NCBI GenBank assembly: GCA_964571255.1
Contig: CAZNAA010000002.1
Span: forward strand, 28,746 to 92,745
Origin: an uncultured Gammaproteobacteria bacterium
Lineage (GTDB): Bacteria; Patescibacteriota; Microgenomatia; Levybacterales; UBA12049
Reading direction: 5' to 3'
DNA: 64,000 nt
The notes beneath the pieces are model-generated. The model had not been told where the DNA came from. It was given only the letters and a program-made list of their open reading frames with translations, and ran no database searches. Positions within the stretch are counted from its first letter, which is position 1. Each line of letters starts with the position of its first letter. Shown here in pieces: positions 6,840 through 61,686 of this stretch. The position numbers were made by a program, and so were the translations under genes.

Positions 6840-6844
6840 ACAGG

Positions 6845-9428: not shown

Positions 9429-9431
9429 GAG

Positions 9432-9459
9432 CTTATTGTACAGAATAATGTACAATAAG
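9432..9459 (-). promoter_or_regulatory. perfect 11-bp inverted repeat (CTTATTGTACA-N6-TGTACAATAAG), putative TA operator
   Basis: Seen directly in the sequence, 4 nt upstream of the antitoxin start codon. Confidence 0.5.
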
Positions 9460-9468
9460 TCAAGAGAC

Positions 9469-18153: not shown

Positions 18154-18767
18154 TAGAGTGTAATCATATTCCGTATCTTCTCAAAAACCCCTACTGATAC
18201 CACTTTTTTCTCAGTAAGCTCTTCAAGAGCACTATATGGCCTAGCTGATATGATTTTCTGTGCTGTTTGTACCCCAATTCCAGGCAGCGTATCCAACTGT
18301 GCCGCTGAGGCTGTATTCATAGAGATAAGACCATCTTTGCTTCCTAAAACACTGGTAGTAGAAATTACTACCTCTTCTCCTTCAAAAGGAATATATAACT
18401 TCATTCCATCAGTGAGTTTCTGAGCTAAGTTTATTTCTCTAGCAATGAGAGCTTTATTTGCATTTAGAGCAAATCCTCCAGCCATTTCAACCACTTCCCC
18501 CACTCTGCTCTCCTCAGAAACTGAATATAGTCCAGGAGAGACCACGGCACCAGAGAGATCAATAACAATTGTCTTAGGAGTTGCTGCAGAAGAAGAAACA
18601 GACTGGGACTCTTGCCCTCTGGTAAAGATAACCTCTGAAGACTCACGAGGAATAAAATACTGCATCAAACCGTATAGTAATAGACCAATTCCTATCAAGC
18701 CAATGATTGTTACCAAGCCGTATTTGCGAAGAGTAAGAAGAAATGAAGACTCAAAGTCATCATCCAT
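18153..18767 (-). CDS. comEA: competence protein ComEA (SLBB + helix-hairpin-helix DNA-binding)
   Basis: 204 aa with an N-terminal TM segment. The C-terminal LDTLPGIGVQTAQKIISARPY...VGVFEKIRNMI segment is a tandem HhH. Confidence 0.8.
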   Translation of the reverse strand: MDDDFESSFLLTLRKYGLVTIIGLIGIGLLLYGLMQYFIPRESSEVIFTRGQESQSVSSSAATPKTIVIDLSGAVVSPGLYSVSEESRVGEVVEMAGGFALNANKALIAREINLAQKLTDGMKLYIPFEGEEVVISTTSVLGSKDGLISMNTASAAQLDTLPGIGVQTAQKIISARPYSALEELTEKKVVSVGVFEKIRNMITL

Positions 18768-39840: not shown

Positions 39841-42800
39841 ATGAAATACCTAAACTATCTTTCACTTTTACGGCACATCTTACGAACAAAAAAAGTCTTG
39901 CTAGCAGGACTCTTGGCTCTTAGCTTACTTCTTGGTCCTCTTATTCCTTTCTTCTCTTTTCATAATTCCTCTAAACAAGAAACACCAAAGTATTTTGCCT
40001 CGGAATTGACGATGCGATCAAAAAAGACTCTCTTTACCCCTGTTGAGAAGCCAACATTTAAGATTGGCATAGGAAAACCTGTCACTCAAGATGGAAAAGT
40101 GCTAGAGAAGATTTCAGGCACGAATGTGTTTATTTCTGAAGTACATGCACAGGAGACTTCCCTTCCAGAACTTCAGATCAAGGCTAGTAGAACAATCAGA
40201 GAGACAGATATAGTCCAAATGGTGGCTAATCGAACAGCCCCTGACGAGATCGAAATCAAAGTAGCAGACGCAGTCTCTTTCCGTCCCGGAAAATATAGGA
40301 TGTCTATTACTTCAGGCAATCGAAATATTGAACAAGATTTTACCTGGGGCGTTTTGGCTGTTAACACAAACAAATCAGTCTATTCTCCAGGAGAAACTGC
40401 AAAAATAGGAATGGCTGTATTAGATGATATAGGTCGTACAAAATGTATGACTGGAGCTTATGCTGAATTTAATAAAGGGAAAGTGTGGCTAACTATTACC
40501 GATCCTTTAGGCAAAAAAACTGAGCATTCTTCAGAAAACGGACTTGTTATAGGAAGTCCTGAGTGTGAAGAACATTCAGTTACTAATGAAGCTGACTTTC
40601 AAACAACGTATAAAACTACGACTCCCGGGATCTATCAGATAGATCTTATTGGGGAAAATCAAAATGGGAAAAAATCAATTGCAGATTACTTTGAAGTAAA
40701 GAGCGACCAATCCGTTATCGTAGAGCGCATATCTCTCCCTACTCGTATTTTCCCTGCATCAGACTATAGCGCTTCTATATCAGTAACCACTAAAGGTCCT
40801 TTTAAAGGACAGATCATAGAAACTACTCCTGCTTCATTTATTATCACCTGTGATGGTTGCCAAGTACTTGGAGAGAACTCACTAAACGATGCGAGTGAAC
40901 CAGCAGATCGAAAAGCCACTCATACCATTGTTTGGGATGTTGATTGGAAAACTGGAGGATCTCATACCCTTTCGTATACTATTAACCCTCCTAATGTCAG
41001 TCCTGAATTTTTCTTACTAGGCCCTCTTACCCTTTCTCAAGGGAAAAATATCCTTTTTAAAGAAGTAAGACAATGGCAGATTGCTTCTGACGCACTCATT
41101 ACGTGGAATGGGAATGGAGCTTCTGTAAACTGGAGTGTCGCTGGAAACTGGTCAACAGGAGCAGCTCCAACAACAGCAGCAAATGTAGTCCTTGACGGAG
41201 TAGCATCACCAAATGGGAATGCAAACTCGACTATTAATAATGCTACGGTAGGAGCCGTAACTGATATCACCATTAATGGATATACAGGAACAGTAACTCA
41301 AGGTGCTGCTATTGCAACAAGTGGAACATCTGGAATTACTGTTACATCTGGAACACTCACGGGCGCAACACAGGCAATCACCCTCACAGATGGATCATTG
41401 ACCGTTAATGGTGGTGTCTTTACGACAACAACAGGTGCTGTAAGTATACAACTAAATCTCACTTTCTCTAGTGGGACACTTACAAATAATGCGAGTGGAA
41501 TCAATTTTACTGATAATACGAGTGCTGATGACTCAACGCTTAGTTGTAGCTCTACACTTTCAGGTACTTGGAGAATTAATAAAACTAGTGGAGGTGATTT
41601 TGCACTAGGATCAGGCTGTACTGTGAGCATGAGTGAGAATGTGACTTCAAGCGTAGGATTATTGACAAATGATGGAACATTGACTATTACTGGAGCTTCA
41701 ACTGTTTTAAACATTGTTGATAACAATATTGATAATAATTCAAGCTTAACCGTTGATAGTTCAGGAGCACGTGTCACTGTTGAGAGAAATTTTGATAATA
41801 CAGGAGGAACATTAACTAACAATGGAACTATTGATTTTCCTGATAGCACAAATGCTGACGATAGCACGCTTACCTGTGGAAACACACCAGGTGGAACTTT
41901 CCGAATTAATAAAGCACAAGGTTCTGACTTTACTCTTTCATCTAGTTGTACTATCACGGCAACTGAAAATGTTACCAGTAGTCTTGGTAGGCTTACCAAC
42001 AATGGCACACTTACTCTTGATAATGGAACATTTGTTTTTGGACAAACGGATACTACCTTATCAGTTGATAATAATTCCTCACTCACTCTTGATACAGACG
42101 CAATTATTACTCTTCAGAGAAACTTTGATAGTACTGGTGGAAGTATCACCAATAATGGAAATATCAACTGGATTTCAGATGAAGCAGGAGCAACTGATAG
42201 TCCAGATCTAACGTGTAATAGTTCACTTGGAGGGTCTGGTAGTTATAATCTTAATTTTGCTGCTGCTGCTGATTTTACCCTTTCTTCCAGTTGCACAGTT
42301 ACTATGTCTGAAAGCCTTGCAGGGGTTGCGCCAATGGGACTACTCACGAACAATGGGGTACTCACGCTAGCCGGGAGTGGAGCAAGCTTTGACTTTAACA
42401 GCACCTCCCCAACCTTGCTCCTTGATAATAATAATACTCTTTCTCTTGGATCTGGAGCAACCATTACTATTCAAAGAAACTTCGACAATACTGGTGGAAG
42501 TTTCTCAAATAGTGGAACAGTTATCTTTGATGCTGATGAAGCAACTGATGACTCTACGTTTACTTGTGGAAACACACCAGGTGGTACTTTCCGAATAGAC
42601 AAGACACTCGCTTCTGATTTTACTCTTTCATCAGGATGTACTATCTCAGCATCAGAAAATGTAACATCTAGCTTAGAAGTTCTTACCAACAATGGCAATC
42701 TTACTCTTACAGGTACTTCAAGCTTTGTCTTCACTACAACCTCTACAAATCTTCAAATTGATAATAACGGGACAATGACTATTGATAGCAGTGTTACTGT

Positions 42801-45800
42801 CTCACTCCACCGAAATTTTGACAACACAGGAGGTACATTAACTAATAGCGGAACAGTTGTCTTTAATTCTGATGAAGCAACTGATGACTCTACGTTTACT
42901 TGTGGAAACACACCAGGTGGTACTTTCCGAATAGACAAGACAACCGGTGGTACTACATTTACCCTTTCTAGTGGCTGTACTGCTTCATTTACTGAATCAG
43001 CTACTGTGGCAATGGAGCAAATAACCAATAACGGAACGATGACTCTAACAGGAGGCAGTAGTTCCTGGCCTCTTACCACTACAAGTGTTACAGATCAGGT
43101 AGTCAATACCGGAACTCTTAATATAACAGGAGGTGCTGCTCTTTCTCTCCATCGAAGTTTTAATGATACAGGAACCGTGAGTAATAGTGGGGGATCAATC
43201 TCATTTCTTTCAGATGAAGCAACTGTTGATGATACTACACTTACTTGTGGAGGCAGTAGTGATTTTGGAGATGTGACAATTAATAAAACAAGTAGTGGGT
43301 CTACATTTACCATCTCCAGCAACTGTGTCTTTAATGATTTTATCTATACCAGTAGTTCAGCTGAATTTTCTAATCCAGGATCTGCCCGTACCCTTAGTGT
43401 TACGGGTAATTTCACGATGGACGATATACAAAATTTGGGTGGAGCAAACTTAACTGTTGAGTTCAGTAGTACTGGGACTCAAACAATCAATAAAAGTAGT
43501 ACAGGCCTTTTTCAGTCTAAATTTTCAGTTAATAAGACAGCAGGAGGCAACTCTGTAGGGCTTGCTACTGCCTTAACAGTCACCACAGAAACGTGCAACA
43601 TTGTTGAAGGAACTTTTGAAACTAACGGCTTTACCTTTACGTGTGCCGGTGGGTTTACCGTTCAAGATGGAGGTAACCTACAAATGCACGGGTCCGAAAC
43701 ACCTACTTCCCCCACTCTCAATTCAGGTTCAACTGTTACCTATGAAGGTAATGGAGATGGAGTTGCAGATACACGAACAATGAAAGCCTATGTTTACCAC
43801 CATTTAACTGTCAATAGTTCAGTAGGTACTGCAGACACCTTTCAACCCCCAAATGCATTCACCGGTGCAAACGATATCAATGGAAATCTTACTATTACAG
43901 ATGGGACATTTGATGTGATTAGCGGAACAAATTATGGAGTTGACGTTGTTGGGAGTTTTAGCATTGCAACAGACGGCATATTTTTAGCTCAAGCGGGAAC
44001 CCTTAAAATCGGTGACGACTTCACAAACAACGGAACCTTTACTGCTGGTACTGGAACAGTGGAGTTAAATACCGCCACTACAGCTACTCTTAATGGTTCA
44101 GGAAGTCCTGCTGTCACGTTTAATAACTTTACCGTAACGACTGCTGCAAAAACAGTTCAATTCACAGCCAGTAAGACGTTTCGTATTAATGGACTGCTTA
44201 CTATTACTGGAACTGCTGGAAATGAGGTTGTTATTAATTCAACAAGTGGCACACAGTGGCTTATTAATCATCAAGGAACAGAAAACGTTACGTATGCAAA
44301 TGTAACCAATTCTGGCTGTGATGGGACTAGTACAACTATCACCATTGATGCTACGAGTATTAATAATGGAAATAACGGAACCTGTTGGGATTTTCCTATC
44401 CTCAATATCACCGTCTCTGGAAATATTTATAGTGATGAAGGAAGTAGCGCCTATGACTGCTCGGCAAACAATATTACGGTGTATACATCAGTCAATGGAG
44501 CTGCAAATGATACACCTGGAACATGTACGCTCAATACTGGCGCTTTCTCTATCACTGCTACTAAACCCACAGCGGCAGCCCAACCTATCGTTATTTTCAT
44601 CGATTCCGGAGAATCAATTAAGGCAACAACTGTCACACTCACTGCCGATGCGACATCTAATATCACTGGTCTTAAGCTCTATGTCGACCACCTCGTTCTT
44701 ACCCACGAAGACTCAGGACCGATGACAAATGCAAAATTAGCAACGGGTGATAACGCTGATGCTGGGATTCGGTATAGCGTCGCAAGTAGCAATTTGACTG
44801 TTGAATCAGGCATAGAACTGTTTGTTTATAACAGTAAAACCTTCACTCCAGGTGGTACGGTTACGACCCAGGGGTCACTTGGTGACTTTCAGCTGGGCAC
44901 ATCAGCTACTGCCACCCTGGGAACAGCAACCAATACCATATCAAATGATATCCTAATAGGGACTTCTGCAACATTAAACGTGAATACAGACACCATAGTA
45001 GCTGGTGGAGACATCACAGCAACAGGTACACTCAACACAACCTCAGGTACACCCACTATCACGATGCGTGGAACAGGGAGTATCTCAGGAGCTGGGTCAA
45101 AAACAGTCTATACCCTACTCATTGGCGATGGAACAACAGCTACCACTACCCTTTCTGGAACACTCACTGCCAATAATGATGTAACTGTTGGAACAGGTTC
45201 TACATTCAATCAAAATGCAAGTTTAAATATTAGTGGTGGAGATTTTACGACAACAACAACTGGAATCGTCAATACGACCAGTGGAACAGGAACAGTCACT
45301 ATAACAGGTACAGGGAATGTCGGAGCAGGGTCTGGTGGATCATTCACTGTTTATAACCTTGCAGCAAACGGTACTCAGACTTTAATCTCAGATATCGTAA
45401 CAACAAACAACATCTCTATCGCCACTGGTGGATCACTCGCACTAGCCAGCAAAAATGTGACAGTTTCTGGTGGAACGGTGAGTACTGCAGGTACGGGAGC
45501 CATCACCTGCTCTGCCTGTTCTGCTGGGACTGTGACTATTTCTGGTACTGGAAATATCGGTGGAGGGGGAACTGTTACTGTGTATAACCTACAAATAAAT
45601 GGAACCCAAACGCTTGCCTCAGCTTTAACAGTTTCTAACGATGCCGTTGTAGGTACTGGAGGGATACTTGATTTAGGAAGTCAGAATATGACCGTAACTG
45701 GTGGAGACTTTACCAATACTACGACAGGGATTATTCGATGCAACAGCTGCTCTGCTGGAACTTTGACCATGCCTGCAACTGGGAATCTTGGGAGTGGCAG

Positions 45801-48800
45801 TGGAGATATTACGCTCTATAACCTAGCAACGAGTGGAACTGGAACTACCACCTTTTCTGGAAGTGGAACAAATACAGTAAGTAACAATGTAACCGTCGGA
45901 GCAGGAACCACTCTTGCCATTAACTCCAGTATTTCTATCACAGGAAGTTTTGCCAATACAACAACTGGGATTATCACAACCACCAGTGGAAATCCAACAG
46001 TAACCGTTTCTGGAGCAACGATTGGCGGAGGAAGTGGAGCTATTACCTTTTATGATCTCACTAAAGCAGGAGGTGGAACCACTACGTTTTCTGGTGCTGG
46101 AACGAACACCGTAAACAACAATTTATCTATATCAAATGGTACCTTTACTCAATCAGATAGCCTTACGGTGACAAACGATATTAGCGTTGCAACAGGAGCA
46201 ACGTATAACAATAATGCAACACTTGCTGTCAATGGAGGAGACTTCACAACAACAAGTACTGGTGTCATCAATACGACCAGCGGTACCCCTACTCTCACCA
46301 TTTCAGGAACAGGGAGTTTGGGTGGAGGAAATGGAAATATTACCCTTTATAATCTGACAACTACTGGATCAGGAACAACTACTTTTTCAGGAGGCGGAAC
46401 TAACACGATAAATAATAATGTCTCAGTTGGGGCAGGAACTACTTTAAATATTAACTCTACAATTGGCATTACAGGAAATCTGACGAACACTTCAACTGGA
46501 ATAATTGGCACAACGAGTGGAACTCCAACGGTAACAGTTTCAGGAACAACGATTGGTGGAGGAAGTGGCGCTATAACTATTTATACGCTTGCCAAAGCTA
46601 CCGCATCAACTACAACTTTTTCAGGAGGCGGAACTAACACTCTTTCACAAAATCTCACAGTTTCTGCAGGGACACTCACTATCTCAAATGATTTGAGTAT
46701 TGGAAATGACGTTTCTGTTGCAACGAGTAGTACGTTAAATCTCAATGGAAACACTTCAATTGGCGGAGGAGATGCAACAACTGCTGGCACTGGGATTATT
46801 AGTACGACAAGTGGTACTCCTACTCTTTCAGTTTCAGGTACAGGAACTGTTGGAGGTGGCGGAGCTGTTAGCGCCTATAACTTAACAATTTCTGGAAGTC
46901 AAACGATCTCTTCAGCCACAACGGTTTCAAATGATTTGAACATTAATGGAACCATGTCTGGTTCTTCAACAGTAACCGTGAATGGCAATTTAGTAGGAAT
47001 TGGAGCCGTTTCTCACGGAGGAACCGTTGAGCATCGAATAGGAAGTGATAAAAACTTTGGAGCAACGAGTGGAAGTGGAACATGGGCATTTACTACGCTC
47101 AAATTTACCAACTCAAGTGGTTCAACCAAAACCATTACCACCCAAACTGGCGGAGCAGGAGGAGTGAGTGCAGCAACTGTTCTTCAAGTTGGAGAAACCG
47201 ATGATTCAGCTGGGATTAACTTAGATGCAGGGAACAAAACATGGACTCTTTCTGGAACAAGTGGAGCTCCATTAAGTATTGAGGATGGAAGTATTGCAGC
47301 AGCGACCTCAACATTTGTGTTTAGCGGAAATAACGGTGGTGGGAATACAACGATTAATGACATTACCTATTACCGGTTAACGGTAAATAACGGCTCAGAA
47401 ACGTTTGTTCTAGCAGCCTCCCCCCTTCTTGTTACCAATACGTTAACAATCAGCGCAGGCACTCTTTCTGTCAGTACAAACTCCGTAACTGTTGGCTCCT
47501 CAAGTGTATCGAATTCTGGGAGTATTTTAAATTCAGGAACCTATTCCCAATCTGCTGGAGGAACAACAACGGTGAAATCCTCTGCCGGGGGAAGCAGCAC
47601 AATTGGAGGAAGCGGAACAACTACTTTTTATAATTTAAGTATTGCTCCAGATGCTGCTTCTGCTCCAACAATTACTCTTGGATCTGCAGGAAGTCAAACA
47701 ATCACTGTTTCCAATAATCTAGGAATTGGAGATGGATCAAACTCAGTAATAGTAACAGCGAACACAAATAACCCTGCGCTTGATGTGAATGGGAATTTTA
47801 CGATTAATACTAGTGCTACTTTTACTGCTCCCCCATCAGCTAGTTTTACTATTGCTGGGAATATGACAAATGATGGAACTTTTACTCATAATAATGGAAC
47901 CGTTACTCTGGATACGACAACAACTGCTACGCTTACAGGAAGTGGCTCTACTGCTATTACGTTTTATAACTTAACTTCAACTACAGCAACCAAAACAATC
48001 CTTTTTACTAGTACAAAAACTTTTAAAACTGATGGCCTCGTTACCTTAACAGGAAGTAGTGGGAATAATATTACAGTTGATGCAACAAGCAACGGGTCCC
48101 AATGGTTAATTAACCATCAAGGAACAGAGAATATTACCTATACCTCTGTCCAAGATTCAGGCTGTGATGGAGCAAGTACTACTATTACGTTGGGAACAAC
48201 GAATACGAATAATGGCAATAATTCCTCCTGTTGGGTCTTTACGATGGATGTAACGGGAAATGTGTATACAGATGAAGGAAGTAGTGCGTATGACTGTTCC
48301 TCAGATAATTTAACCATTCATATCTCAGTCAATGGAGCAGCCAGCACAACAACTACCTGCACCTTAAATACTGGAGCCTTTAGCTTTTCAGGAGTCACTA
48401 AACCGTCAAATGGAACTCCTATTGTTCTGTATATTGATAGTGGAGAAACACCAAAAGCAACAACTGTTACTCTTGCCGATTCCAGTTTAACTGGAGTAAA
48501 AATCTATCAAAACCATGTGAACTTAACTCATGAAAATGCAGGACCTATTACCAATACCAACCTTTCAACAGCTGATAATGGAGATAGCGGAATACGATAC
48601 AACGTCAGTAGCGGAAATGTCACGTTTGATACAGATATGGAGGCTCATGTCCTTGGAAGTAAAACGTATACACCTGGAGGAAATGTGACTACACAAGGAA
48701 GCGCTGGAGATTTTCACCTTGCCTCAAGTAGTACTGCCACTCTTGGAGGAATAACAACACTTTCTGGTGACGTGCAGGTTGATACAGGAGCCACGCTTAC

Positions 48801-50604
48801 TATCAACGCTGATACAGCTGTTTCTGGAGGAGCAGTAGCAACAAGCGGGACAGGAAGTGTTACGACCAGCAGTGGAACACCTACTCTGACCATTAGTGGA
48901 ACAGGAAATATTGGGGGTGGAGGAAGTGTCACCGCTTATAATTTGACAGTATCAGGTACTCAGACACTTCAATCAAATCTGATTGCAAATAATGATATTA
49001 GTGTTTCAAACGGAGCTTCCCTTGCCCTTAACGGAAAAGATACGACAGTGACTGGTGGCGACTTTACTACGACAGGAACTGGTGCTATTACTTGTTCTGG
49101 ATGTAGTGCTGGAACAACTACTATTAACGGAGGAGCAGCAAGTGGACTGGGAGGAGGAGGAGCAGTTACTGTCTATAATCTCACTATTGGCGGAACAGTA
49201 CCTCTTCTTTCTACCCTTACTGCGCTTAATACCTTAACCGTGAATGGAACATTCTCCGGCTCTTCCAATGCAACCGTGAATGGAAGTATTGCAGGAACTG
49301 GGACAATCATTTTTTCTGGAGGAACAGTTGATCAACGAGTGGGAGCTTCTCAAAACTTTGGAACAACGAGTGGGAGTACTAACTGGACTTTTTCGACACT
49401 TATTTTCTCAAACTCCAGCGGAACGAGCAAAACTGTTACTACCCAAACTGGAGGAAGTGGAACAGTCACTGCCTCAACCCTTCTCCAAATTGGCAAAGGA
49501 GGAGACAGTGCAGCCACAGTACTTGACGCTGGAAATAGAAATTGGATTGTTCAAGGAACAAGTGGTACTCCTCTAACTCTCCCTCAAGGAAGTGTTACGG
49601 CCAACACCTCAACAGTTAGTTATACAGGAAATAATACTGGTGGAAATACCACTATTGCAACTATCACCTACTACTCCCTCCTCGTAAATAACAGTTCAGA
49701 AACCTATACCCCGTCCACCACTCTTGCTATTGATAATGGATTAACCGTTACATCAGGAACGCTTGATCTTGGCACGAATGATACAACCATTGGATCAACT
49801 GGCGTATCAAACTCAGGAGGAGTCTCTGTTCTTGGTACCCTTACGCAATCTTCCAGTGCAACCACTACTATTCGAACCTCTGCTAGCGGAGCTAGCACTG
49901 TTGGAGGAAGTGGTAGTATCACCTTTTACAACCTTTCTTTGGCTCCTGCTGCTAATAGTGGAGTAATCACACTAGGATCTGCCACCAGTCAAACGATTAC
50001 TGTTTCAGGTACACTTACTATTGGAAACGGCAGTAACTCTGTGACTGTGACTGCTAATACGAATAACCCCACCATTGATGTCAATGGCAGCCTGACAATC
50101 AATACAAGTGGAACCTTGGTTGCACCACCTTCCTCTATCCTCTCCATTGCTGCAAATATGACAAATGACGGAACCTTTACAGCCAATGGAGGAACTGTTC
50201 GAATTGACGGTTCAGGAACATCAGTTCTCAATGGCTCCTCAAGTCCTGCTATCATCTTTGCCAACTTTCTCTCAAGTACAGCAGGAAAGACTATTCAATT
50301 CACCGCATCCAAAATTTTCCGAATAACAGGCTCACTTACCATTACTGGAGCTACAGGAAATACAATCGCTATTCAATCAACAAGCGGGACACAATGGCTT
50401 ATCGATCACCAAGGGACAGAAAGCGTAACGAACGCAACCATTACCAACTCAGGCTGTGATGGAGCCAGTACAGATATCACCCTTGGGTTTAGTAATTTTA
50501 ATGGAGGAAACAATGGAGTGTGTTGGGTCTTTACTGCTGGAGGAGCGATACAGTCACGCGTGAAAGGAACAACTCGAGTAGGAGGAAATGCTCGGATCCA
50601 ATAA
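39841..50604 (+). CDS. giant (3587 aa) secreted surface protein with beta-helix-like repeats
   Basis: Has a signal/TM N-terminus (LLAGLLALSLLLGPLIPFF). Repeated TNNGTLTLTG...FDNTGG...DEATDDSTFTCGNTPGGTFRIDKT units are present. About seven ~90-aa GTG...VYNL...GTQT repeats follow. A ~130-aa Cys-containing module (QWLI[ND]HQGTE...SGCDG...CW.F) occurs three times. Confidence 0.85.
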   Translation: MKYLNYLSLLRHILRTKKVLLAGLLALSLLLGPLIPFFSFHNSSKQETPKYFASELTMRSKKTLFTPVEKPTFKIGIGKPVTQDGKVLEKISGTNVFISEVHAQETSLPELQIKASRTIRETDIVQMVANRTAPDEIEIKVADAVSFRPGKYRMSITSGNRNIEQDFTWGVLAVNTNKSVYSPGETAKIGMAVLDDIGRTKCMTGAYAEFNKGKVWLTITDPLGKKTEHSSENGLVIGSPECEEHSVTNEADFQTTYKTTTPGIYQIDLIGENQNGKKSIADYFEVKSDQSVIVERISLPTRIFPASDYSASISVTTKGPFKGQIIETTPASFIITCDGCQVLGENSLNDASEPADRKATHTIVWDVDWKTGGSHTLSYTINPPNVSPEFFLLGPLTLSQGKNILFKEVRQWQIASDALITWNGNGASVNWSVAGNWSTGAAPTTAANVVLDGVASPNGNANSTINNATVGAVTDITINGYTGTVTQGAAIATSGTSGITVTSGTLTGATQAITLTDGSLTVNGGVFTTTTGAVSIQLNLTFSSGTLTNNASGINFTDNTSADDSTLSCSSTLSGTWRINKTSGGDFALGSGCTVSMSENVTSSVGLLTNDGTLTITGASTVLNIVDNNIDNNSSLTVDSSGARVTVERNFDNTGGTLTNNGTIDFPDSTNADDSTLTCGNTPGGTFRINKAQGSDFTLSSSCTITATENVTSSLGRLTNNGTLTLDNGTFVFGQTDTTLSVDNNSSLTLDTDAIITLQRNFDSTGGSITNNGNINWISDEAGATDSPDLTCNSSLGGSGSYNLNFAAAADFTLSSSCTVTMSESLAGVAPMGLLTNNGVLTLAGSGASFDFNSTSPTLLLDNNNTLSLGSGATITIQRNFDNTGGSFSNSGTVIFDADEATDDSTFTCGNTPGGTFRIDKTLASDFTLSSGCTISASENVTSSLEVLTNNGNLTLTGTSSFVFTTTSTNLQIDNNGTMTIDSSVTVSLHRNFDNTGGTLTNSGTVVFNSDEATDDSTFTCGNTPGGTFRIDKTTGGTTFTLSSGCTASFTESATVAMEQITNNGTMTLTGGSSSWPLTTTSVTDQVVNTGTLNITGGAALSLHRSFNDTGTVSNSGGSISFLSDEATVDDTTLTCGGSSDFGDVTINKTSSGSTFTISSNCVFNDFIYTSSSAEFSNPGSARTLSVTGNFTMDDIQNLGGANLTVEFSSTGTQTINKSSTGLFQSKFSVNKTAGGNSVGLATALTVTTETCNIVEGTFETNGFTFTCAGGFTVQDGGNLQMHGSETPTSPTLNSGSTVTYEGNGDGVADTRTMKAYVYHHLTVNSSVGTADTFQPPNAFTGANDINGNLTITDGTFDVISGTNYGVDVVGSFSIATDGIFLAQAGTLKIGDDFTNNGTFTAGTGTVELNTATTATLNGSGSPAVTFNNFTVTTAAKTVQFTASKTFRINGLLTITGTAGNEVVINSTSGTQWLINHQGTENVTYANVTNSGCDGTSTTITIDATSINNGNNGTCWDFPILNITVSGNIYSDEGSSAYDCSANNITVYTSVNGAANDTPGTCTLNTGAFSITATKPTAAAQPIVIFIDSGESIKATTVTLTADATSNITGLKLYVDHLVLTHEDSGPMTNAKLATGDNADAGIRYSVASSNLTVESGIELFVYNSKTFTPGGTVTTQGSLGDFQLGTSATATLGTATNTISNDILIGTSATLNVNTDTIVAGGDITATGTLNTTSGTPTITMRGTGSISGAGSKTVYTLLIGDGTTATTTLSGTLTANNDVTVGTGSTFNQNASLNISGGDFTTTTTGIVNTTSGTGTVTITGTGNVGAGSGGSFTVYNLAANGTQTLISDIVTTNNISIATGGSLALASKNVTVSGGTVSTAGTGAITCSACSAGTVTISGTGNIGGGGTVTVYNLQINGTQTLASALTVSNDAVVGTGGILDLGSQNMTVTGGDFTNTTTGIIRCNSCSAGTLTMPATGNLGSGSGDITLYNLATSGTGTTTFSGSGTNTVSNNVTVGAGTTLAINSSISITGSFANTTTGIITTTSGNPTVTVSGATIGGGSGAITFYDLTKAGGGTTTFSGAGTNTVNNNLSISNGTFTQSDSLTVTNDISVATGATYNNNATLAVNGGDFTTTSTGVINTTSGTPTLTISGTGSLGGGNGNITLYNLTTTGSGTTTFSGGGTNTINNNVSVGAGTTLNINSTIGITGNLTNTSTGIIGTTSGTPTVTVSGTTIGGGSGAITIYTLAKATASTTTFSGGGTNTLSQNLTVSAGTLTISNDLSIGNDVSVATSSTLNLNGNTSIGGGDATTAGTGIISTTSGTPTLSVSGTGTVGGGGAVSAYNLTISGSQTISSATTVSNDLNINGTMSGSSTVTVNGNLVGIGAVSHGGTVEHRIGSDKNFGATSGSGTWAFTTLKFTNSSGSTKTITTQTGGAGGVSAATVLQVGETDDSAGINLDAGNKTWTLSGTSGAPLSIEDGSIAAATSTFVFSGNNGGGNTTINDITYYRLTVNNGSETFVLAASPLLVTNTLTISAGTLSVSTNSVTVGSSSVSNSGSILNSGTYSQSAGGTTTVKSSAGGSSTIGGSGTTTFYNLSIAPDAASAPTITLGSAGSQTITVSNNLGIGDGSNSVIVTANTNNPALDVNGNFTINTSATFTAPPSASFTIAGNMTNDGTFTHNNGTVTLDTTTTATLTGSGSTAITFYNLTSTTATKTILFTSTKTFKTDGLVTLTGSSGNNITVDATSNGSQWLINHQGTENITYTSVQDSGCDGASTTITLGTTNTNNGNNSSCWVFTMDVTGNVYTDEGSSAYDCSSDNLTIHISVNGAASTTTTCTLNTGAFSFSGVTKPSNGTPIVLYIDSGETPKATTVTLADSSLTGVKIYQNHVNLTHENAGPITNTNLSTADNGDSGIRYNVSSGNVTFDTDMEAHVLGSKTYTPGGNVTTQGSAGDFHLASSSTATLGGITTLSGDVQVDTGATLTINADTAVSGGAVATSGTGSVTTSSGTPTLTISGTGNIGGGGSVTAYNLTVSGTQTLQSNLIANNDISVSNGASLALNGKDTTVTGGDFTTTGTGAITCSGCSAGTTTINGGAASGLGGGGAVTVYNLTIGGTVPLLSTLTALNTLTVNGTFSGSSNATVNGSIAGTGTIIFSGGTVDQRVGASQNFGTTSGSTNWTFSTLIFSNSSGTSKTVTTQTGGSGTVTASTLLQIGKGGDSAATVLDAGNRNWIVQGTSGTPLTLPQGSVTANTSTVSYTGNNTGGNTTIATITYYSLLVNNSSETYTPSTTLAIDNGLTVTSGTLDLGTNDTTIGSTGVSNSGGVSVLGTLTQSSSATTTIRTSASGASTVGGSGSITFYNLSLAPAANSGVITLGSATSQTITVSGTLTIGNGSNSVTVTANTNNPTIDVNGSLTINTSGTLVAPPSSILSIAANMTNDGTFTANGGTVRIDGSGTSVLNGSSSPAIIFANFLSSTAGKTIQFTASKIFRITGSLTITGATGNTIAIQSTSGTQWLIDHQGTESVTNATITNSGCDGASTDITLGFSNFNGGNNGVCWVFTAGGAIQSRVKGTTRVGGNARIQ
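44900..46900 (+). repeat. tandem ~270-nt coding repeats inside giant protein 2
   Basis: Peptide units of the form ...TSGTPT(V/L)T(V/I)SGTG..GGG....YNL...GT.T.. recur about seven times. Confidence 0.7.
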
Positions 50605-54920: not shown

Positions 54921-56228
54921 CTATTTTCCAAGAGTCTCGAGAAACTCATCATTTGATTCCGTTTGGCTCAATCTCTCAATTAAAATACTCGTTCTTTCAT
55001 CAGGTCCAAGCATATCAATCATTCGTCTCATGGTAACCATTTTCTTATACGTTGGGTCATCAAGCAGCAACTCTTCTTGTCTAGTTCCTGATCTTTCGAC
55101 ATTAATCGCAGGATAAATTCGGCGCTCTGCCAGTCTGCGATCTAAATGCAACTCCATATTTCCCGTTCCCTTAAACTCTTCATAGACCAAGTCATCAAGT
55201 CGGGATCCCGTATCAATCAGAGCTGTTCCAATAATGGTGAGAGAACCTCCGTCTTTGCAGTTTCGAGCTGCTCCAAAAATTCTTTTAGCTGGCCAGAGAG
55301 CAGCTGGATCAAATCCTCCGGAAAGGGTTCGTCCACTAGGCGCAACGGAAAGATTATAGGCACGAGCAAGTCTCGTGATTGAATCTAAAAGAACAATCAC
55401 GTCTTTGCCTGTTTCAACAAGTCGTTTCGCTCGCTCCAGAGCAATTTCAGCAATTCGGGTTTGATCCTCTGGTGGTTCATCAAAGTTTGAGGCAACTACT
55501 TCTCCGTGAACTGATGAGGAAATATCTGTTACTTCCTCAGGACGCTCTCCAACTAAAACGGCCATTAAGAAAGAATCAGGAAAGTTTTTGGCAATTCCTG
55601 CGGCCAAGTCTTTGAGAATGGTTGTCTTTCCTGCTTTTGGAGGAGAAACGATCATTCCACGCTGTCCAAATCCAATAGGAGCTACTAAATCAATAATCCG
55701 AGTTGAAAGAGGCAGTTTGCCTGTTGAAAGAGTAATTTGTTTATTAGGATAAATTGGCGTCAGATCCTCAAACCAAGGTCTATTATATGACTCCTCCCCT
55801 GTTTGTCCATTTACTTTCTCGACCTTTAATAAGCCGTAATATCTTTCATTGTCTTTGGGAGGACGAGCAACTCCTTCAACCAAATCTCCTCCACGCAGCG
55901 CAAACCTTCTAATTTGAGATTGAGAGATATAAATATCACGATTGGAGGGAACAAATTTAGGACGCAAAAACCCATGTCCTTCAGGCTGTAAGTCTAAATA
56001 TCCTTTTACTTCCTCAGTTGGACCTTGTTGAACTGCAGGATATGAGGAAGAATAACCTCCACCATTACCATTTTGACCTCCTTGATCATCATAGGATTGG
56101 TTTGAAGAAGATTGGCTAGATGAGTTTTCCTGAAAATCATCATTTGGAGACACACGACGAGGACGGAGTGTTTTACCCACAAAATCAGCTGCAGAACTTG
56201 AGGAAACTGGTTTTCTTGTATATGGCAT
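54921..56228 (-). CDS. rho: transcription termination factor Rho
   Basis: 435 aa. Has an RNA-binding OB fold and RecA-type ATPase motifs (GQRGMIVSPPKAGKTT; LLDSITRLARAYN). A Q/S/G/N-rich low-complexity insertion lies near the N-terminus. Confidence 0.9.
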   Translation of the reverse strand: MPYTRKPVSSSSAADFVGKTLRPRRVSPNDDFQENSSSQSSSNQSYDDQGGQNGNGGGYSSSYPAVQQGPTEEVKGYLDLQPEGHGFLRPKFVPSNRDIYISQSQIRRFALRGGDLVEGVARPPKDNERYYGLLKVEKVNGQTGEESYNRPWFEDLTPIYPNKQITLSTGKLPLSTRIIDLVAPIGFGQRGMIVSPPKAGKTTILKDLAAGIAKNFPDSFLMAVLVGERPEEVTDISSSVHGEVVASNFDEPPEDQTRIAEIALERAKRLVETGKDVIVLLDSITRLARAYNLSVAPSGRTLSGGFDPAALWPAKRIFGAARNCKDGGSLTIIGTALIDTGSRLDDLVYEEFKGTGNMELHLDRRLAERRIYPAINVERSGTRQEELLLDDPTYKKMVTMRRMIDMLGPDERTSILIERLSQTESNDEFLETLGK

Positions 56229-56366: not shown

Positions 56367-57050
56367 ATGAGAAAATGGATTATTCTAGCACTTCTTTTTG
56401 TTTTAGCTGCACTCATTCCCTCTTTCGCTTTTGCTGATACCGCCTGTCAACCTAGATACGGGGGAGGCGTAACGTGTGATAAGAATACAACAGTTGTGGA
56501 TAAAAAGGTAAAAAATCCCCAAACCAACCTCTATGTAAATACCCTTGATACCAAAGGCCCACTCTTTACACCTACTGACACGGTCATGTTTCGAATAAGT
56601 GTTACCAATATCGGAACGACTGCTCTAACCAATATCCCCTTGGTAGATAACTTTCCTAAGTATCTAACTCACGTAAAGGGCGGAACATGGGATGCTAGTA
56701 AGCGACAAGTGAAGTTTATGATCACCAGACTCGCAGCCAATGAAACTAAGACGTTTGAAATAGAAGCACTTTTATCAGATAAAGAAACTATTTCAGAAAC
56801 AGCCAGTCTGTTTTGTCTCTCCAATACTGCCTCCACGACTCTTTTGGAACAAACCTTTCAAGACAGTGCTCAGTTTTGTATAGAAAAAGAAGGAGAGGAA
56901 ACAATTCCTTCTCAATCTAAAGGTGGACTTCCCGTCTTTACTCCTCAAAAGGGAACTCCTTCTCACACTCCAAAAACCGGAGCAGAAGTAACACTGCTTC
57001 TTCCCATTCTTGGAGGACTAGGGTATTTTCTGAAAAGAAGAACTAACTAA
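56367..57050 (+). CDS. DUF11-like surface protein with C-terminal sorting signal (TPKTGAE + TM + KRRTN)
   Basis: 227 aa with a signal peptide. The DUF11-type repeat domain is (SVTNIGTTALTNIPLVDNFPKYL...W...ANETKTFEIEA). It ends HTPKTGAEVTLLLPILGGLGYFLKRRTN. Confidence 0.6.
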   Translation: MRKWIILALLFVLAALIPSFAFADTACQPRYGGGVTCDKNTTVVDKKVKNPQTNLYVNTLDTKGPLFTPTDTVMFRISVTNIGTTALTNIPLVDNFPKYLTHVKGGTWDASKRQVKFMITRLAANETKTFEIEALLSDKETISETASLFCLSNTASTTLLEQTFQDSAQFCIEKEGEETIPSQSKGGLPVFTPQKGTPSHTPKTGAEVTLLLPILGGLGYFLKRRTN

Positions 57051-59199
57051 CCTTTTTTCCAAATCGCTCACGAGAAACTCTCATGACTTTTTCCTTATTT
57101 TGAGATCTGGAATTAGGAAGTGGCAAAGTGTAGCAGAAGAACGGACTACTCGTTGTTCCATCAATACAAAGTTTTAACATTGCTTGATAGTTTCCTAGAG
57201 CCAAGATATCCTCTTCTTTAAATCTCTCCTTAAACTCTTTGGCCAAATACGTGGCATCATTTGCTCCAACCAGAAAAGTCATCAGAGTCCCTGCATTTCC
57301 AAAAATAGCTGATCTGATATCCTCTTGGACTTGATCAATGTATTGATTTGCTAAAATCAAGCTTAAACGAAACTTTCGAGCTTCAGAGAGAATTTTGATA
57401 AAAGAGGTTGTGGCAAAGTTTTGGAACTCATCAACGTACAAGTAAAAGTCCCGTCTCTCCTCCTCCGGAATAGAAACTCGATTCATTGCGGCCAGTTGAA
57501 TTTTGGTAATAATCATAGCACCAAGTAGTGCTGCATTATCTTCTCCCAAATGACCTTGGGACAAGTTTAAAATAAGAATTTTTCCTTCATTCATGATTTT
57601 TTCTAAATCAATGGTCGATTTGGGATGTCCTATGATATTTCTAATTGTTTTACTTGAGGTAAATTGGCCTACTTTATTAAGAATAGGCGCAACAGCCTCA
57701 GTCATCATCTTTGGATCCATGGCATTAAACTCTTTTTCCCAAAAGTTAATAAGCACTGGATCTGTTAAGTTATCAATCACTTTTTTTCGAAAAGCTGCAT
57801 TGGTCAAAACGTCAGGAACCATAAGAAGAGTTGCATCAGGCATTTCAATAATCGAAACAATCGTGTTTCTTAAAATATACTCAAGCCGAGGCCCCCAGCT
57901 TGTTCCATAGAGTTTTTTGAAAATAGCTACAATTCCTGAAGCAACGAGTTCTTTTTGCGCATCATTCGTTACTTCAAGTGGATTAATCGCAAATTGATAC
58001 TCCGTATCGGCTGGATTCATATAGGCAATATCATTCACCCTATATGAAGGGACAAATTCTAAAATATGCTCACATAAGTCACCGTGTGGATCAATGACAC
58101 AAAACCCACGTCTTTTTCTCAAATCATCAATCGCCATATTGGCAATAAAAGTTGATTTACCCGTACCTGACTTTCCAATGACATACAAGTGACGCCTTCT
58201 ATCCACTTTCTTAATGCCAAAGTTTGTTAACTTATTCTTATATTCAGTCTTTGCAAAAAAGTTAATGTCTTGTAACTCCTCTTCTGTTTTTCCTTCAGAA
58301 ACTGGAAGTGTTTCTGGTGCATCGGAAAGAATTACTCTATGCCAGGCCAAGTTATGAATAGTAGATAGTTTGATATTGGGAAAATGGAAGATACTCGCTA
58401 TTTCCCAGACGTTTAAGATTTGTCCTAAGGGAATAAACTTTCTAGAGCGAGTCACAATAGATTGAATAAGTTGGTCTTTTTGCCAAAATAGAGGTTTTTT
58501 TGTTATCAAGCTATTTGCTGAAGGATGAGCAAAGGTGGCAAAACTTTGCGTGATTTCTGAGAGGTATTTTGAGCCTCTATGACTATCATCACTACTCACG
58601 AGAACTCTAATCCCTGTATTAAACCCAACAACAGATACCTTTTCGGTAATGAGAGCTGCGTAAGGGTTAGGAGAAGTTGTGCCATCACTACTCGTTACCT
58701 TTCCATTAGCAACACCTCTCCCCTTTGACTGCCAGGATGAAGAAACAGGCACCAAAAGATACTGCACCACTGCACTATCCCCCGGCTGACACTTTGAGAG
58801 AATACTCAATACACTGGAGAGTGGATCAACATCTTTGAATTCCCTGACTGTTTTTAATGGATAAATAGAAGGATGAGACAACGTCAAACTCGAAGCAAGC
58901 TTATGAGAAGCTTGTAACATTTCCGGCATATAGTCCTTAACTGCTGAAATGAGTGCTTTGGGGTATTGAGAAAGAAGCTGACTCTCAACAAAAATACGAG
59001 AGGATTCAGGAATGGTGAGATAGAAATGAACGATCTGGTCAATTACGGCAATTTCTAAAGTAATAGGAATTCCCTTTTTCCAAAAATACCTTACTCGAGT
59101 TTTAAGCGTTGTTAAGGTGGTTAAAAACTGCACCATAGCCTCAACTGTTTCTTCTCCAGTCCGGCTTGTTTTGATTTCTAGAACAACTTTCTCACTCAT
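57043..59199 (-). CDS. P-loop ATPase of the FtsK/HerA/TraG-VirD4 (DUF87-like) clade
   Basis: 718 aa. Walker A (VIGKSGTGKSTFIANM) and Walker B (FYLYVDEFQNF) motifs, plus a downstream ARKFRLSLILANQ segment typical of T4SS coupling-protein-like ATPases. Confidence 0.6.
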   Translation of the reverse strand: MSEKVVLEIKTSRTGEETVEAMVQFLTTLTTLKTRVRYFWKKGIPITLEIAVIDQIVHFYLTIPESSRIFVESQLLSQYPKALISAVKDYMPEMLQASHKLASSLTLSHPSIYPLKTVREFKDVDPLSSVLSILSKCQPGDSAVVQYLLVPVSSSWQSKGRGVANGKVTSSDGTTSPNPYAALITEKVSVVGFNTGIRVLVSSDDSHRGSKYLSEITQSFATFAHPSANSLITKKPLFWQKDQLIQSIVTRSRKFIPLGQILNVWEIASIFHFPNIKLSTIHNLAWHRVILSDAPETLPVSEGKTEEELQDINFFAKTEYKNKLTNFGIKKVDRRRHLYVIGKSGTGKSTFIANMAIDDLRKRRGFCVIDPHGDLCEHILEFVPSYRVNDIAYMNPADTEYQFAINPLEVTNDAQKELVASGIVAIFKKLYGTSWGPRLEYILRNTIVSIIEMPDATLLMVPDVLTNAAFRKKVIDNLTDPVLINFWEKEFNAMDPKMMTEAVAPILNKVGQFTSSKTIRNIIGHPKSTIDLEKIMNEGKILILNLSQGHLGEDNAALLGAMIITKIQLAAMNRVSIPEEERRDFYLYVDEFQNFATTSFIKILSEARKFRLSLILANQYIDQVQEDIRSAIFGNAGTLMTFLVGANDATYLAKEFKERFKEEDILALGNYQAMLKLCIDGTTSSPFFCYTLPLPNSRSQNKEKVMRVSRERFGKKVS

Positions 59200-59237
59200 A
59201 TCATTATTTTACCTCTTTTTTCTCTCCCACACAAACT

Positions 59238-59265
59238 TGCACATTCACAAATAGTAGCCTATAAT
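59238..59265 (+). promoter_or_regulatory. sigma70-like promoter (TTGCAC-16 nt-TATAAT-ACA), third copy of the cassette seen at 5838 and 6812
   Basis: TTGCAC lies at 59238-59243 and TATAAT at 59260-59265. A leader box CTTAACAAGG (59323-59332) matches CTTTAACAAGG of the other two copies. Confidence 0.5.
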
Positions 59266-59453
59266 ACAACTAGCTTTTCTCCCATTGTATGCAATGGAGG
59301 AGAAAAAGCACTCTTTTAGCACCTTAACAAGGTATCCACAACATCATCCAGCCTCACATTCTGTACCCTATTCCTTTTAGTATATAGAATGTGTGGCGCA
59401 TGGATGATGCCACAAAGTAACGATTTTACCAATACGCACAGAAGGAGTATCCC

Positions 59454-60506
59454 ATGTCAAAACGGCGACGGATCACAATCGGCCTCATTGGGTTGTTAGT
59501 TTTTAGCCTGCTCTTCCCTCTTAGGGTTGGAGCAGATGACATCCCTCCACGAGAGCTAGCACCCACTATGCATAAAACGCGGTGCGTGCCAAATCAAACA
59601 GTTGGAGATGGAATTCCTACCATTCTTGACGGAGGGGATGGGCACTACGTAGTCCACCCTGAGCTGGCCCCCATCCTGAAACGCGAAGGGGGATTTTGCG
59701 AGATCAAGGCTCTAACCAGCGAATACTCGGAGATCCGCATCACCAGTGCCTCTCCCATCATGGCCATGACTGAGAAAGTACGCCATGAGAAAGTGAAAGA
59801 TATCACTCTGACCGGTAGGACAATAGCGATCTGGATTGACAAGGGCGCAGATGCGTCCAAGATCCTGATCACCGTTCAGTCTGTATTCCTGGACCTGGAT
59901 CCACGAATCGGGGGCGAAAAGTATAATACCCCCGGCTCAACCTACTTCCCGCAAACTGGCCAGAGGATTTCAGAAAAGTTCCTCAAGGCCTGGGAAACTA
60001 ACGGGGGGCTTACCCAGTTCGGCTTCCCTACCTCTCCGGAGGGATTGGAGAGGCTCGAAGACGGCAAGCTCTACAAAATACAGTACTTCGAGCGCGCCCG
60101 ATTCGAGCACCATCCCGAAAACGCGGGGACACGATACGAAGTGATGCTCGGTCAATTCGGCCGACGAATTCATGGGAAGATAGATCCTAACGCCGAGCGG
60201 GCGAAGGATCATACCTGCAGCTATTTCCAGCTTACGTTGGATATAGGCCACAATCTCTGTGGCTCCTTCAACGAGTACTGGGTAACCCATGGCGGGCTTG
60301 CCCAATTCGGGTTCCCGATCACCGAGGAATTCGAAGAAACGCTGGAGGATGGTAAAACCTATCGGGTTCAGTACTTCGAGCGCGCCCGATTCGAGCACCA
60401 TCCAGAGAACCCAGCTCCCTATAACATTCTCCTCGGCCAATTCGGCCGAAGGATTCTAGCTGACTTAGCAAACCAACGCCTAACAAGCGCTGGTAACAAT
60501 AAGTAG
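59454..60506 (+). CDS. GC-rich secreted tandem-repeat protein (350 aa), probably horizontally acquired
   Basis: Strong SD (AGAAGGAG, then 7 nt, then ATG). Has a signal peptide. Two ~100-aa repeats of the form ...GGL.QFGFP...EDGK.Y..QYFERARFEHHPEN...LGQFGRRI. GC is far above the genome background. Confidence 0.65.
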   Translation: MSKRRRITIGLIGLLVFSLLFPLRVGADDIPPRELAPTMHKTRCVPNQTVGDGIPTILDGGDGHYVVHPELAPILKREGGFCEIKALTSEYSEIRITSASPIMAMTEKVRHEKVKDITLTGRTIAIWIDKGADASKILITVQSVFLDLDPRIGGEKYNTPGSTYFPQTGQRISEKFLKAWETNGGLTQFGFPTSPEGLERLEDGKLYKIQYFERARFEHHPENAGTRYEVMLGQFGRRIHGKIDPNAERAKDHTCSYFQLTLDIGHNLCGSFNEYWVTHGGLAQFGFPITEEFEETLEDGKTYRVQYFERARFEHHPENPAPYNILLGQFGRRILADLANQRLTSAGNNK

Positions 60507-60555
60507 ATTCACTCTGCGCAGTATTGGGATCAGCTCAAAAGAATGGAGCTGGACC

Positions 60556-60573
60556 GGAGAGGAAAACCTCTCC
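60556..60573 (+). terminator. stem-loop GGAGAGG-AAAA-CCTCTCC downstream of the GC-rich gene
   Basis: Perfect 7-bp stem seen in the sequence. The following sequence is only weakly T-rich. Confidence 0.3.
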
Positions 60574-61686
60574 TGCGCATCCCTTTGTGGGAAAAGATCA
60601 ATCAATTCTTCTTCTTCTCAAAGTAGCAATAGCGCTTATCTGAGAAAATGCAGACAGGATTGACCTTTAGGATACCTTGTAAACATCCGTTTTCTTCCTC
60701 AGAACTTGACAATCCCAACAAAAATAGTACAATACTATAAGTCTTGATGTTTTTATGCTCTTTTGGGCGTAAAATCTATTAGACACGCACATTTACAATA
60801 TACAGGGTCTAATAAAACCCACGTACTGGAGATAAGCTTCTTAGTATCATAAGAGTCTTTTCTCCGGTATGTGGACAGCTGATTGACAGCTTTTCCACTC
60901 TGGATACTGAGGCCACAAGCCTCAAGGAGCCATCAGTGGCACGAAAACCCAAGACACCGGTCCCAGTAATACGACGGGAGACCTTTCCAGTATGGAAGGA
61001 AAACTTAGTAAAAATAGGAGTAATAATCCTACTTCTCTCAATTCCAACCCTAATCTTCCTCTCCTACTTGGCAAGGTAGAACTTCCTCTTCCCCTTCGGG
61101 GACCTGGTCCAGGTGCACAACGAAGTGCAGCTGGGAGGGTTCAAATCCCTCAAGAGGAACCGCTGCAAAGCGCATGTGCGCATGGCAGAAAACTGGGAGG
61201 GACAAATGACGCCATACGGTCGGTTCGAGGAGCTGATAAAACGTCTTTTTGGGCCACTCTTGGCCCGAATGAACCACGCAACAGAGTGGTTCGTCAACCA
61301 CTTTGGCTTCTTCAGCGAAAGGAGGGATGTCGACAATGAGTAGGATGCCAGGAGGGTGTGTTGTCCTCCTTATTAGTGCCTTACTCCTTCTAGGAGCGAT
61401 CCTGGAGGGAGTGGGAATCATTGTCCCGTGAGAAACAGATCGGGTGAGCTCCGGTAAAGCAAGCTCAATCAGCCTTTAGAGGAAAGAAATGAACAAAAAA
61501 AAACGGTATCAATTGCGATACCTTAGAGTTTTCCGTTTTCTTCTCTTCCTGGCACACATTTGTGCCCCCTGTATATTCAACCAACAACAATACAATAAAG
61601 ATTCACCTCTAAATGGCTCATAGTCCTTATTTCCCTAACTCCTTGACATATCCTATAATCTTTTGCTATACTCTGTTTGAGGTTAT

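Follow-up and report, generated by a model that had tools for sequence, protein, structure and literature searches.

Why should an AT-rich bacterial genome repeatedly carry one kind of promoter and leader in front of GC-rich DNA? The question is raised by a stretch of 64,000 nucleotides (nt) of contig CAZNAA010000002.1 (assembly GCA_964571255.1), hereafter the window, from a reduced-genome bacterium of the candidate phyla radiation (CPR). An initial annotation had noticed three copies of a promoter/leader cassette there, each joined to GC-rich DNA, and had proposed either a module that this organism places before acquired DNA or a riboregulatory leader shared by several loci. A shared module is indeed present, and its copies number five, two having been overlooked. 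It is best read, by analogy, as an rRNA-operon-type leader, probably combining a Nus-factor antitermination signal with an end-to-end helix, that has been reused for other transcripts. The option of a shared riboregulatory leader thus came close to the truth, in the form of an rRNA-type leader. The module did not prove specific to the organism: a BoxA with the 5' arm of a leader-trailer helix was also seen on the rRNA of its relatives. Promoters and transcript ends are throughout predictions from sequence, and coordinates refer to the plus strand unless another is given.

Five units with a BoxA and matching ends

The five units, all on the plus strand, form two tandem clusters, one of u0 (4931-5770), u1 (5838-6711) and u2 (6812-7488) and the other of u3 (59237-60683) and u4 (60706-61577). 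Their order is a sigma-70-type predicted promoter, a 5' hairpin, BoxA, a leader arm, the payload and a complementary trailer arm. BoxA lies 40-53 nt 3' of the predicted -10 element in all five, and an inverted-repeat search revealed that the 11-14 nt right after the box, the leader arm, are complementary to the far end of the GC-rich segment; in some units this arm overlaps the last BoxA bases. Alignment and BLAST of the three regions first noticed showed collinear blocks common to them, comprising the promoter, the box, a GU-rich block and purine-rich blocks resembling a Shine-Dalgarno (SD) sequence.

In u0, the promoter (from 4931; TTGACA, 17-nt spacer, TAGATT) is followed by the BoxA-like GCACTTTTACAA (5002-5013) and the leader arm (5015-5025), with the trailer arm CATCAGTCTGT at 5760-5770. 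The u1 promoter (from 5838; TTGCAT, 16-nt spacer, TATAAT) precedes a 5' hairpin (5872-5906) in a boxB-like position upstream of BoxA GTTCTTTAACAA (5908-5919), and the arms at 5919-5932 and 6698-6711 match at 93% over 14 nt. The same GTTCTTTAACAA recurs in u2 (6880-6891) behind a promoter from 6812 (TTGAAT, 16-nt spacer, AATAAT), and here the 13-nt arms at 6890-6902 and 7476-7488 are a 100% match, the trailer arm TAGTCTGTGCCTT being followed by ATCCTTTTTTGG. The u3 promoter-like site (59237-59265; TTGCAC at 59237-59242, 17-nt spacer, TATAAT at 59260-59265, then ACA) is conserved in the related loci L001 and L004, and its BoxA-like element GCACCTTAACAA occupies 59319-59330. The u3 leader arm (59324-59346) has a perfect core, ACAAGGTATCC, at 59327-59337, which matches the core GGATACCTTGT (60670-60680) of the trailer arm (60661-60683) at 100% over 11 nt, the longer pairing being 78% over 23 nt; GTTTTCTT follows. 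In u4, the promoter (from 60706; TTGACA, 16-nt spacer, TACAAT), the BoxA-like GCACATTTACAA (60787-60798) and the leader arm (60797-60807) are all conserved in L001, and the trailer arm CCCTGTATATT lies at 61567-61577. U-runs stand directly 3' of the trailer arms of u2 and u3. The u2 trailer arm also overlaps the stop codon of a convergent sortase gene (7487-8191, minus strand).

Related loci were obtained as syntenic contigs (L001-L004), found by way of proteins homologous to the u3 product and to the TrwB-like neighbour, and as 80 further loci from a metagenome scan with the TrwB-like protein; the relatives' TrwB-like protein is 47-67% identical to that of the window. Together with the window these loci provided 19 units having both a BoxA and arms, 6 of them rRNA and 13 other, which were aligned on the box for comparison. 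Each box site followed by sufficient sequence has its own leader-trailer complement of 10-20 nt, against a mean of about 8.4 nt when leaders were matched to the downstream regions of other units, and the few cross-matches of at least 11 nt come from orthologous units sharing arms. Counting from the start of BoxA, Watson-Crick pairs fill columns 13-23 in 16-19 of the 19 units, each column showing three to five pair types, and all four bases appear in the leader strand of these columns. Orthologues in L001-L004 keep the leader and change both arms together (TATCC, TATCCT, TATACAGGA, TATGCAGAT), and variants matched on both sides were found in other orthologues as well (CACAGACTA, CACAGAG, AAGCACAGACTG). 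On the sortase side, the syntenic loci L086 and L087 retain GTTCTTTAACAA with altered yet matching arms (AAGGCACAGAG, AAGCACAGACTG). As read from these comparisons, the flanking sequences are complementary and covarying, in the layout of the putative leader-trailer (processing) helix of the relatives' rRNA.

The identity of the box was approached through the gamma-proteobacterial BoxA consensus GYTCTTTAANA (PMC5725501), which the u1 and u2 boxes (GTTCTTTAACA) fit perfectly. The u3 box has two mismatches to it, A at position 3 and C at position 5, and both departures occur in rRNA BoxAs of relatives (L028, L047 and L031; L053 and L018). The same box motif precedes rRNA in L016, L018, L028, L031, L047 and L053, with the boxes reading GTTCTTTGACAA, GTACTTTGACAA, GTACTTTGAAAA, GCTCCTTGACAA and GTTCCTTGACAA. 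Box and arms bracket Rfam-confirmed rRNA genes in L016 (16S and 23S), L028 (23S) and L018, L047 and L053 (16S), and those of L016 16S and L028 23S combine the box with a perfect arm pair of 18-20 nt. The L053 16S leader has a hairpin with a AGCTTTGGCG loop and then GCTCCTTGACAA, and the non-rRNA leaders of L002 and L003 are arranged likewise, with hairpin loop AGCTTTAGCGAAG (L002b, L003b) and box GCTCCTTGACAAGG (L002) or GCACTTTGACAAGG (L003). A further rrn element, boxC (UCUGUGUGGG-like), follows boxA at 18-19 nt and belongs to the 5' strand of the leader-trailer helix (PMC10250234). The u0-u3 leaders have a partial match to it, GUGUGG, which comes 60-200 nt downstream of BoxA and is not part of the paired arm.

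It could be argued that a plain strong consensus promoter has here been joined to a chance downstream motif, the link with GC-rich DNA being coincidental. The -35 and -10 elements are indeed generic and also front native genes; one such promoter, without a box, stands at 61643. Moreover, TTAACAAGG with one mismatch is not enriched on the two strands of the window (17 found, 23 expected). Exact TTAACAAGG, in turn, occurs three times in 128 kb (both strands), each time on the plus strand and 51-64 nt after a -10 element. Since the 9-mer is not enriched with one mismatch, the signal lies in its context and not in its count. A pattern derived from rRNA leaders only, GYWCYTTRAMAA, found exactly the three first-noticed sites in the window, against 0.75 expected, and 4 of 100 shuffles reached three; the widened degenerate pattern GYWCHTTDACAA found the five unit sites only, against 0.57 expected, and no shuffle out of 100 yielded five. 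Coincidence is contradicted by the five boxes, which share one orientation and a fixed distance from the -10 element and each have a covarying distal partner of their own, by a leader 97% conserved in a relative whose payload is 71% identical, and by the presence of the same box on rRNA leaders. The probability of coincidence was judged negligible, and the chance or plain-promoter explanation is excluded by arm specificity, column pairing and both pattern scans.

The flanking arms could also be regarded as DNA-level inverted repeats of an invertible or mobile cassette, with the box as a recombinase site. Inverted repeats of 11-14 bp do flank each unit, and sortase-side payloads are wholly different in relatives while box and arms persist, as for a cassette. 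However, the box is often missing from the right arm and only the unit-specific part is repeated, which is the opposite of what a recombinase site would lead one to expect; the same architecture brackets 16S and 23S rRNA as an RNA helix with G.U pairs; no recombinase or transposase adjoins either cluster; and the orientation relative to the promoter is constant in every copy seen, with synteny kept across relatives. Such repeats are improbable as an explanation. The relatives' rRNA helices extend over the box, and the G.U pairs that they contain fit pairing at the level of RNA.

Other occurrences of similar sequences were also noted. L014 has two BoxA-like sites (9817 and 12570, plus strand) in direct orientation 2.7 kb apart, with the next 14 nt identical (TTAGGCTGTGTAAA). 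Within TrwB-like genes, CTTAACAAGGT encodes LNKVG (L038 3462, L044 1786, L077 3066, L079 8594), and these are coding coincidences and not leaders. Introns were found in related CPR loci (L031 8214-8542, L022 2434-2646, L053 2899-2989), group I at or near rRNA genes and a group II fragment downstream of 16S.

Structured RNAs and proteins between the arms

The u2 payload (6903-7475), about 570 nt, gave a folding z score of -15.3. In L090, whose sortase is 96% identical, the promoter, box and arms are identical to those of u2, and indels of 1 and 11 nt fall inside the candidate open reading frames (ORFs) of u2, together with the replacement of a hairpin tip; a deletion of 10 nt affects that region in L091. 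Of the u2 stem substitutions relative to L090 and L091, 12 of 12 keep the pair, among 186 predicted pairs. From its fold and substitutions, u2 is read as a structured non-coding RNA of about 600 nt and not as foreign coding DNA. It matched no Rfam family (6880-7488) and may represent a new RNA class. An Rfam scan returned only two tRNAs at the gathering threshold and nothing credible at E <= 10 in either cluster region.

The u1 payload (5933-6697) is likewise GC-rich and predicted to be a highly structured RNA (z = -7.1). A unit of L086 (8570-9440, minus strand) that is syntenic to u1 has z = -11.1 and several GNRA-capped hairpins, without a convincing ORF. Both may be further structured RNAs, having no sequence in common with u2 beyond box and arm. 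Comparison of u0-u2 with the syntenic L086, L087 and L089 by tblastx and blastn found only BoxA and arm conserved, and the sortase-side relatives retain box and arms yet carry unrelated payloads. In a 200-nt sliding scan, z ranged from -3 to -7 over most of the units and stayed close to 0 in native genes, the transition between the two being sharp.

Small ORFs occupy two further units. In u0 there are two (5204-5413 and 5411-5634), with an ATGA stop/start overlap and GC at third codon positions (GC3) of 0.60-0.66; their products are acidic and proline-rich and have no signal peptide. In u4 there are two small membrane-peptide ORFs, of 47 amino acids (aa; 60936-61079) and 31 aa (61337-61431), and the 47-aa peptide is conserved in L001.

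The fifth payload, that of u3, is an ORF of 350 aa (59454-60506), and the initial annotation was right to call it a real gene for a secreted-type protein: it is conserved, with orthologues in relatives, and has an N-terminal signal-like hydrophobic helix. Its structure model (predicted local distance difference test score 86.8) consists of the signal helix, a beta-sandwich and two alpha/beta repeats of Chloroflexota type. The protein has no Pfam match, no PDB sequence match and no significant PDB fold match, and the LGFP repeat (PF08310) was not matched in it even at E <= 10; in some of its homologues, LGFP repeats do accompany the shared module. About half of the protein consists of the alpha/beta repeats, which show roughly 60% identity to a module that many secreted enzymes carry, and those matches that name their source are from Chloroflexia, Thermomicrobiales or Chloroflexota. 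The N-terminal half is confined to the relatives found in this analysis. The protein is fast-evolving, with 75% identity to the L001 orthologue, as against 97% for the adjacent TrwB-like ATPase (57043-59199), and at the DNA level the identity to L001 is 97% in the leader core, 82-87% in neighbouring genes and 71% in the payload.

Much of the initial description of the u3 leader was borne out. The box CTTAACAAGG is found at 59323-59332, the leader measures about 185 nt (given as about 190), and the strong SD is present as AAGGAG at 59442-59447, ahead of the ATG at 59454. The promoter, described as TTGCAC-N16-TATAAT, does contain these motifs, with a spacer of 17 nt from TTGCAC; N16 is obtained only if TGCACA is read from 59238. 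Similarly, the TGTGGCGC..GCCACA hairpin proposed at 59392-59414 can form, though bases 59392-59409 sit in the 3' strand of a longer, 29-bp hairpin (59342-59409), for which a fold of a three-sequence alignment gave one compensatory and two wobble changes and which contains the boxC-like GUGUGG at 59391-59396. A 5' hairpin (59273-59309), in a boxB-like position upstream of BoxA in the minimum free energy (MFE) fold, shows a compensatory change in L004 (CAUUG/CAAUG to CCUUG/CAAGG). For the whole u3 leader the folding z score is -5.9. The trailer has a conserved structured element (60515-60579) immediately behind the stop codon of the payload, with an outer stem GCGCAG/CUGCGC around two hairpins and a UGGGAUCA motif. 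Counterparts of it occur in L001 (9850-9914) and twice in L002 (3724-3788 and 5314-5376), with compensatory changes in L001 and L002 and no U-run. Sequestration of the SD, suggested by pairing of 59310-59318 with it in the u3 MFE fold, was dropped as a candidate, the pairing not being conserved in L001.

A leader of this kind could be ligand- or protein-sensing, like a riboswitch, and define a regulon, its likeness to BoxA being incidental. The conserved, stable 29-bp hairpin of u3 and the length of the leaders would suit this. Yet no Rfam match was obtained even at E <= 10, and the units differ in the hairpins that lie between box and payload and have only the BoxA and arm logic in common. 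A sensing leader is accordingly very improbable. Readings as integron attC sites, a retron or a riboswitch were dropped, the repeats being 0.6-1.3 kb apart and unit-specific, with no reverse transcriptase, integrase or Rfam match.

The GC-richness that first drew attention to the u3 gene is confirmed (GC 0.53 and GC3 0.60, relative to GC3 of 0.27-0.37 in 16 native genes), and so is the association of the module with GC-rich DNA, which extends to all five window units. More broadly, in the 19 units with BoxA and arms the interval that the arms enclose exceeds its own locus in GC content. The unit ORFs have GC3 of 0.46-0.69 against the 0.27-0.37 of native genes, and u3 orthologues at 40-75% protein identity have 0.63-0.72. 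Because high GC3 persists in such diverged orthologues, composition is a maintained property of these units and not the fading signal of a transfer. The proposal that the payloads came from a GC-rich donor could apply, at the most, to the C-terminal half of the u3 protein, with its roughly 60% identity to Chloroflexota modules, and is unsupported for the remainder, including the u2 RNA.

A possible mechanism and its relation to known leaders

By analogy with rrn operons and BoxA-protected CRISPR (clustered regularly interspaced short palindromic repeats) arrays, a sequence of events can be proposed that would include Nus binding, antitermination, cleavage and defined transcript ends. NusB and NusE (S10) would bind BoxA on the nascent RNA and give a termination-resistant RNA polymerase, whereby a long GC-rich RNA that is untranslated or poorly translated would escape Rho. 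Such escape would be needed by a 600-nt untranslated RNA and by mRNAs with leaders of 120-190 nt and atypical, GC3-rich codons. BoxA would then remain tethered at the RNA exit channel, with the leader arm held ready until the trailer arm emerges; the tethering model for rrn would explain why the leader arm directly abuts the box. Finally, the helix would join the transcript ends for processing (of RNase III type), end protection or 3'-end definition. A rho gene, encoding the termination factor that BoxA complexes counter, is present in the window (54921-56228, minus strand; Pfam Rho_RNA_bind and ATP-synt_ab).

BoxA could instead act as a repressor or attenuator, in the manner of E. coli suhB, with Nus factors blocking translation and promoting Rho termination, so that the units would be tied negatively to Nus-factor or ribosome levels. 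It is known that BoxA can promote Rho termination depending on context (PMC5725501; review PMC12360218), and ORFs do lie downstream in u3, u0 and u4. However, the suhB BoxA is close to the SD, whereas here the first start codon comes 124-191 nt after the box; u2 is without any ORF; and the co-occurring leader and trailer arms reproduce the rRNA design, in which BoxA antiterminates. Repression was judged unlikely on this evidence.

Several observations weigh against the rRNA-type leader. The u0, u3 and u4 boxes differ at two or three positions from a consensus that derives from E. coli and drifts between phyla, and u0 and u4, the weakest BoxA members with two to three mismatches, lie outside the rRNA-only pattern. 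The non-rRNA arms, at 11-14 bp, are shorter than the rRNA arms (18-20 bp) and short for a classical RNase III substrate. The window is without an rRNA operon of this genome, so the rRNA comparison rests on relatives. In the payloads C does not consistently exceed G, leaving an argument from C-rich Rho-loading (rut) sites unsupported. No nusB, nusG, suhB or rnc was seen in about 0.9 Mb around one marker gene, which says little, and tblastn with approximate E. coli NusB and RNase III queries gave no match in that marker-centred DNA, a result that is uninformative.

Among known systems, the closest in order of elements is the rrn operon leader, in which boxB, boxA and boxC are followed by the leader-trailer helix and for which tethering has been modelled (PMC10250234). 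Its antitermination complex comprises NusA, NusB, NusE, NusG and SuhB along with S4, and the window units have the same succession of hairpin, BoxA and 5' strand of a long-range helix. Unlike in the rrn operon, the cargo is not rRNA (a secreted-protein mRNA, small-peptide operons and at least one structured RNA), the arms are 11-14 bp and start at the BoxA end, and boxC is partial (GUGUGG). For CRISPR arrays, whose transcripts are long and untranslated, BoxA has also been found to give protection against Rho (Stringer et al. 2020, PMC7665894), a non-rRNA use that fits u2 directly; CRISPR leaders, in contrast, have no leader-trailer helix, and the window payloads have no relation to CRISPR and are in part translated genes. 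BoxA before protein-coding genes was described in 2017 (PMC5725501), where it lies within about 50 nt of the start codon and is repressive, whereas in the window it stands over 120 nt upstream and is linked to a distant pairing partner. RfaH/ops and lambda N/nut, which serve horizontally acquired or phage operons (review PMC12360218), resemble the units as leader antitermination signals on Rho-prone operons of atypical composition. However, ops is recognised as DNA by a NusG paralogue, and in nut, which needs the phage N protein, boxA precedes boxB; neither was found here.

A literature search found no paper on BoxA in CPR bacteria, nor on leader-trailer helices bracketing mRNAs or other non-rRNA units. 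Pairing of the 5' and 3' untranslated regions (UTRs) occurs in single bacterial mRNAs such as S. aureus icaR, the ends of which pair as proposed here. UTR pairings of the icaR type are isolated and target the SD, unlike the present repeated, BoxA-linked module, which does not involve the SD. BoxA outside rRNA has precedents in suhB and CRISPR arrays, and the new part would be the whole leader logic, including the end-to-end helix, on non-rRNA cargo.

BoxA/Nus antitermination is usually seen as dedicated to rRNA, and here rRNA leader logic appears to be reused several times within 64 kb in a reduced-genome CPR bacterium. As a tentative extension, possible though rather doubtful, the rRNA leader may have become, in this CPR lineage, an all-purpose platform for expression, made up of promoter, BoxA and a unit-specific leader arm with its matching trailer arm, that carries fast-changing payloads; among these would be surface or secreted proteins and large structured RNAs (u2, and probably also u1 and the L086 unit). 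The trailer arm would then serve as an address that closes the transcript, and the u2 and u3 arms with their U-run would form a split terminator or a processing helix that only the cognate unit completes. If the reuse of rRNA leader logic is confirmed, a sequence rule (BoxA plus a matching distal arm) would allow transcription units to be found whole in uncultivated bacteria, along with new structured RNAs, and GC-rich structured islands in AT-rich genomes could be explained without recent gene transfer. It would also point to fast-evolving secreted or surface products that may mediate host contact, one of them with a Chloroflexota-type module.

The organism and other genes of the window

The gene content, which includes DUF11 proteins, a sortase, the TrwB-like ATPase, ComEA/ComEC, two ORFs longer than 3,500 aa and toxin-antitoxin pairs, fits CPR/Patescibacteria. 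Among named homologues, the nearest are from Saccharibacteria for leucyl-tRNA synthetase (65-67% identity) and from Levybacteria/Roizmanbacteria for the sortase (about 60%). Scans of genome-collection contigs with a PEGA protein and the TrwB-like alignment gave no confirmed relative.

The two giant ORFs are adjacent (28638-39770 and 39841-50604) and encode 3,710 and 3,587 aa, with GC of 0.52-0.56 at second codon positions and GC3 of 0.28. A ParE-like toxin and Phd/YefM antitoxin pair at 8909-9509 lies beside an HxlR regulator and an FMN reductase. A competence cluster at 16065-18767 includes a ComEA-like protein (HHH/SLBB). ComEC appears to be split there, the Competence domain of ComEC and a metallo-beta-lactamase ORF being separate.

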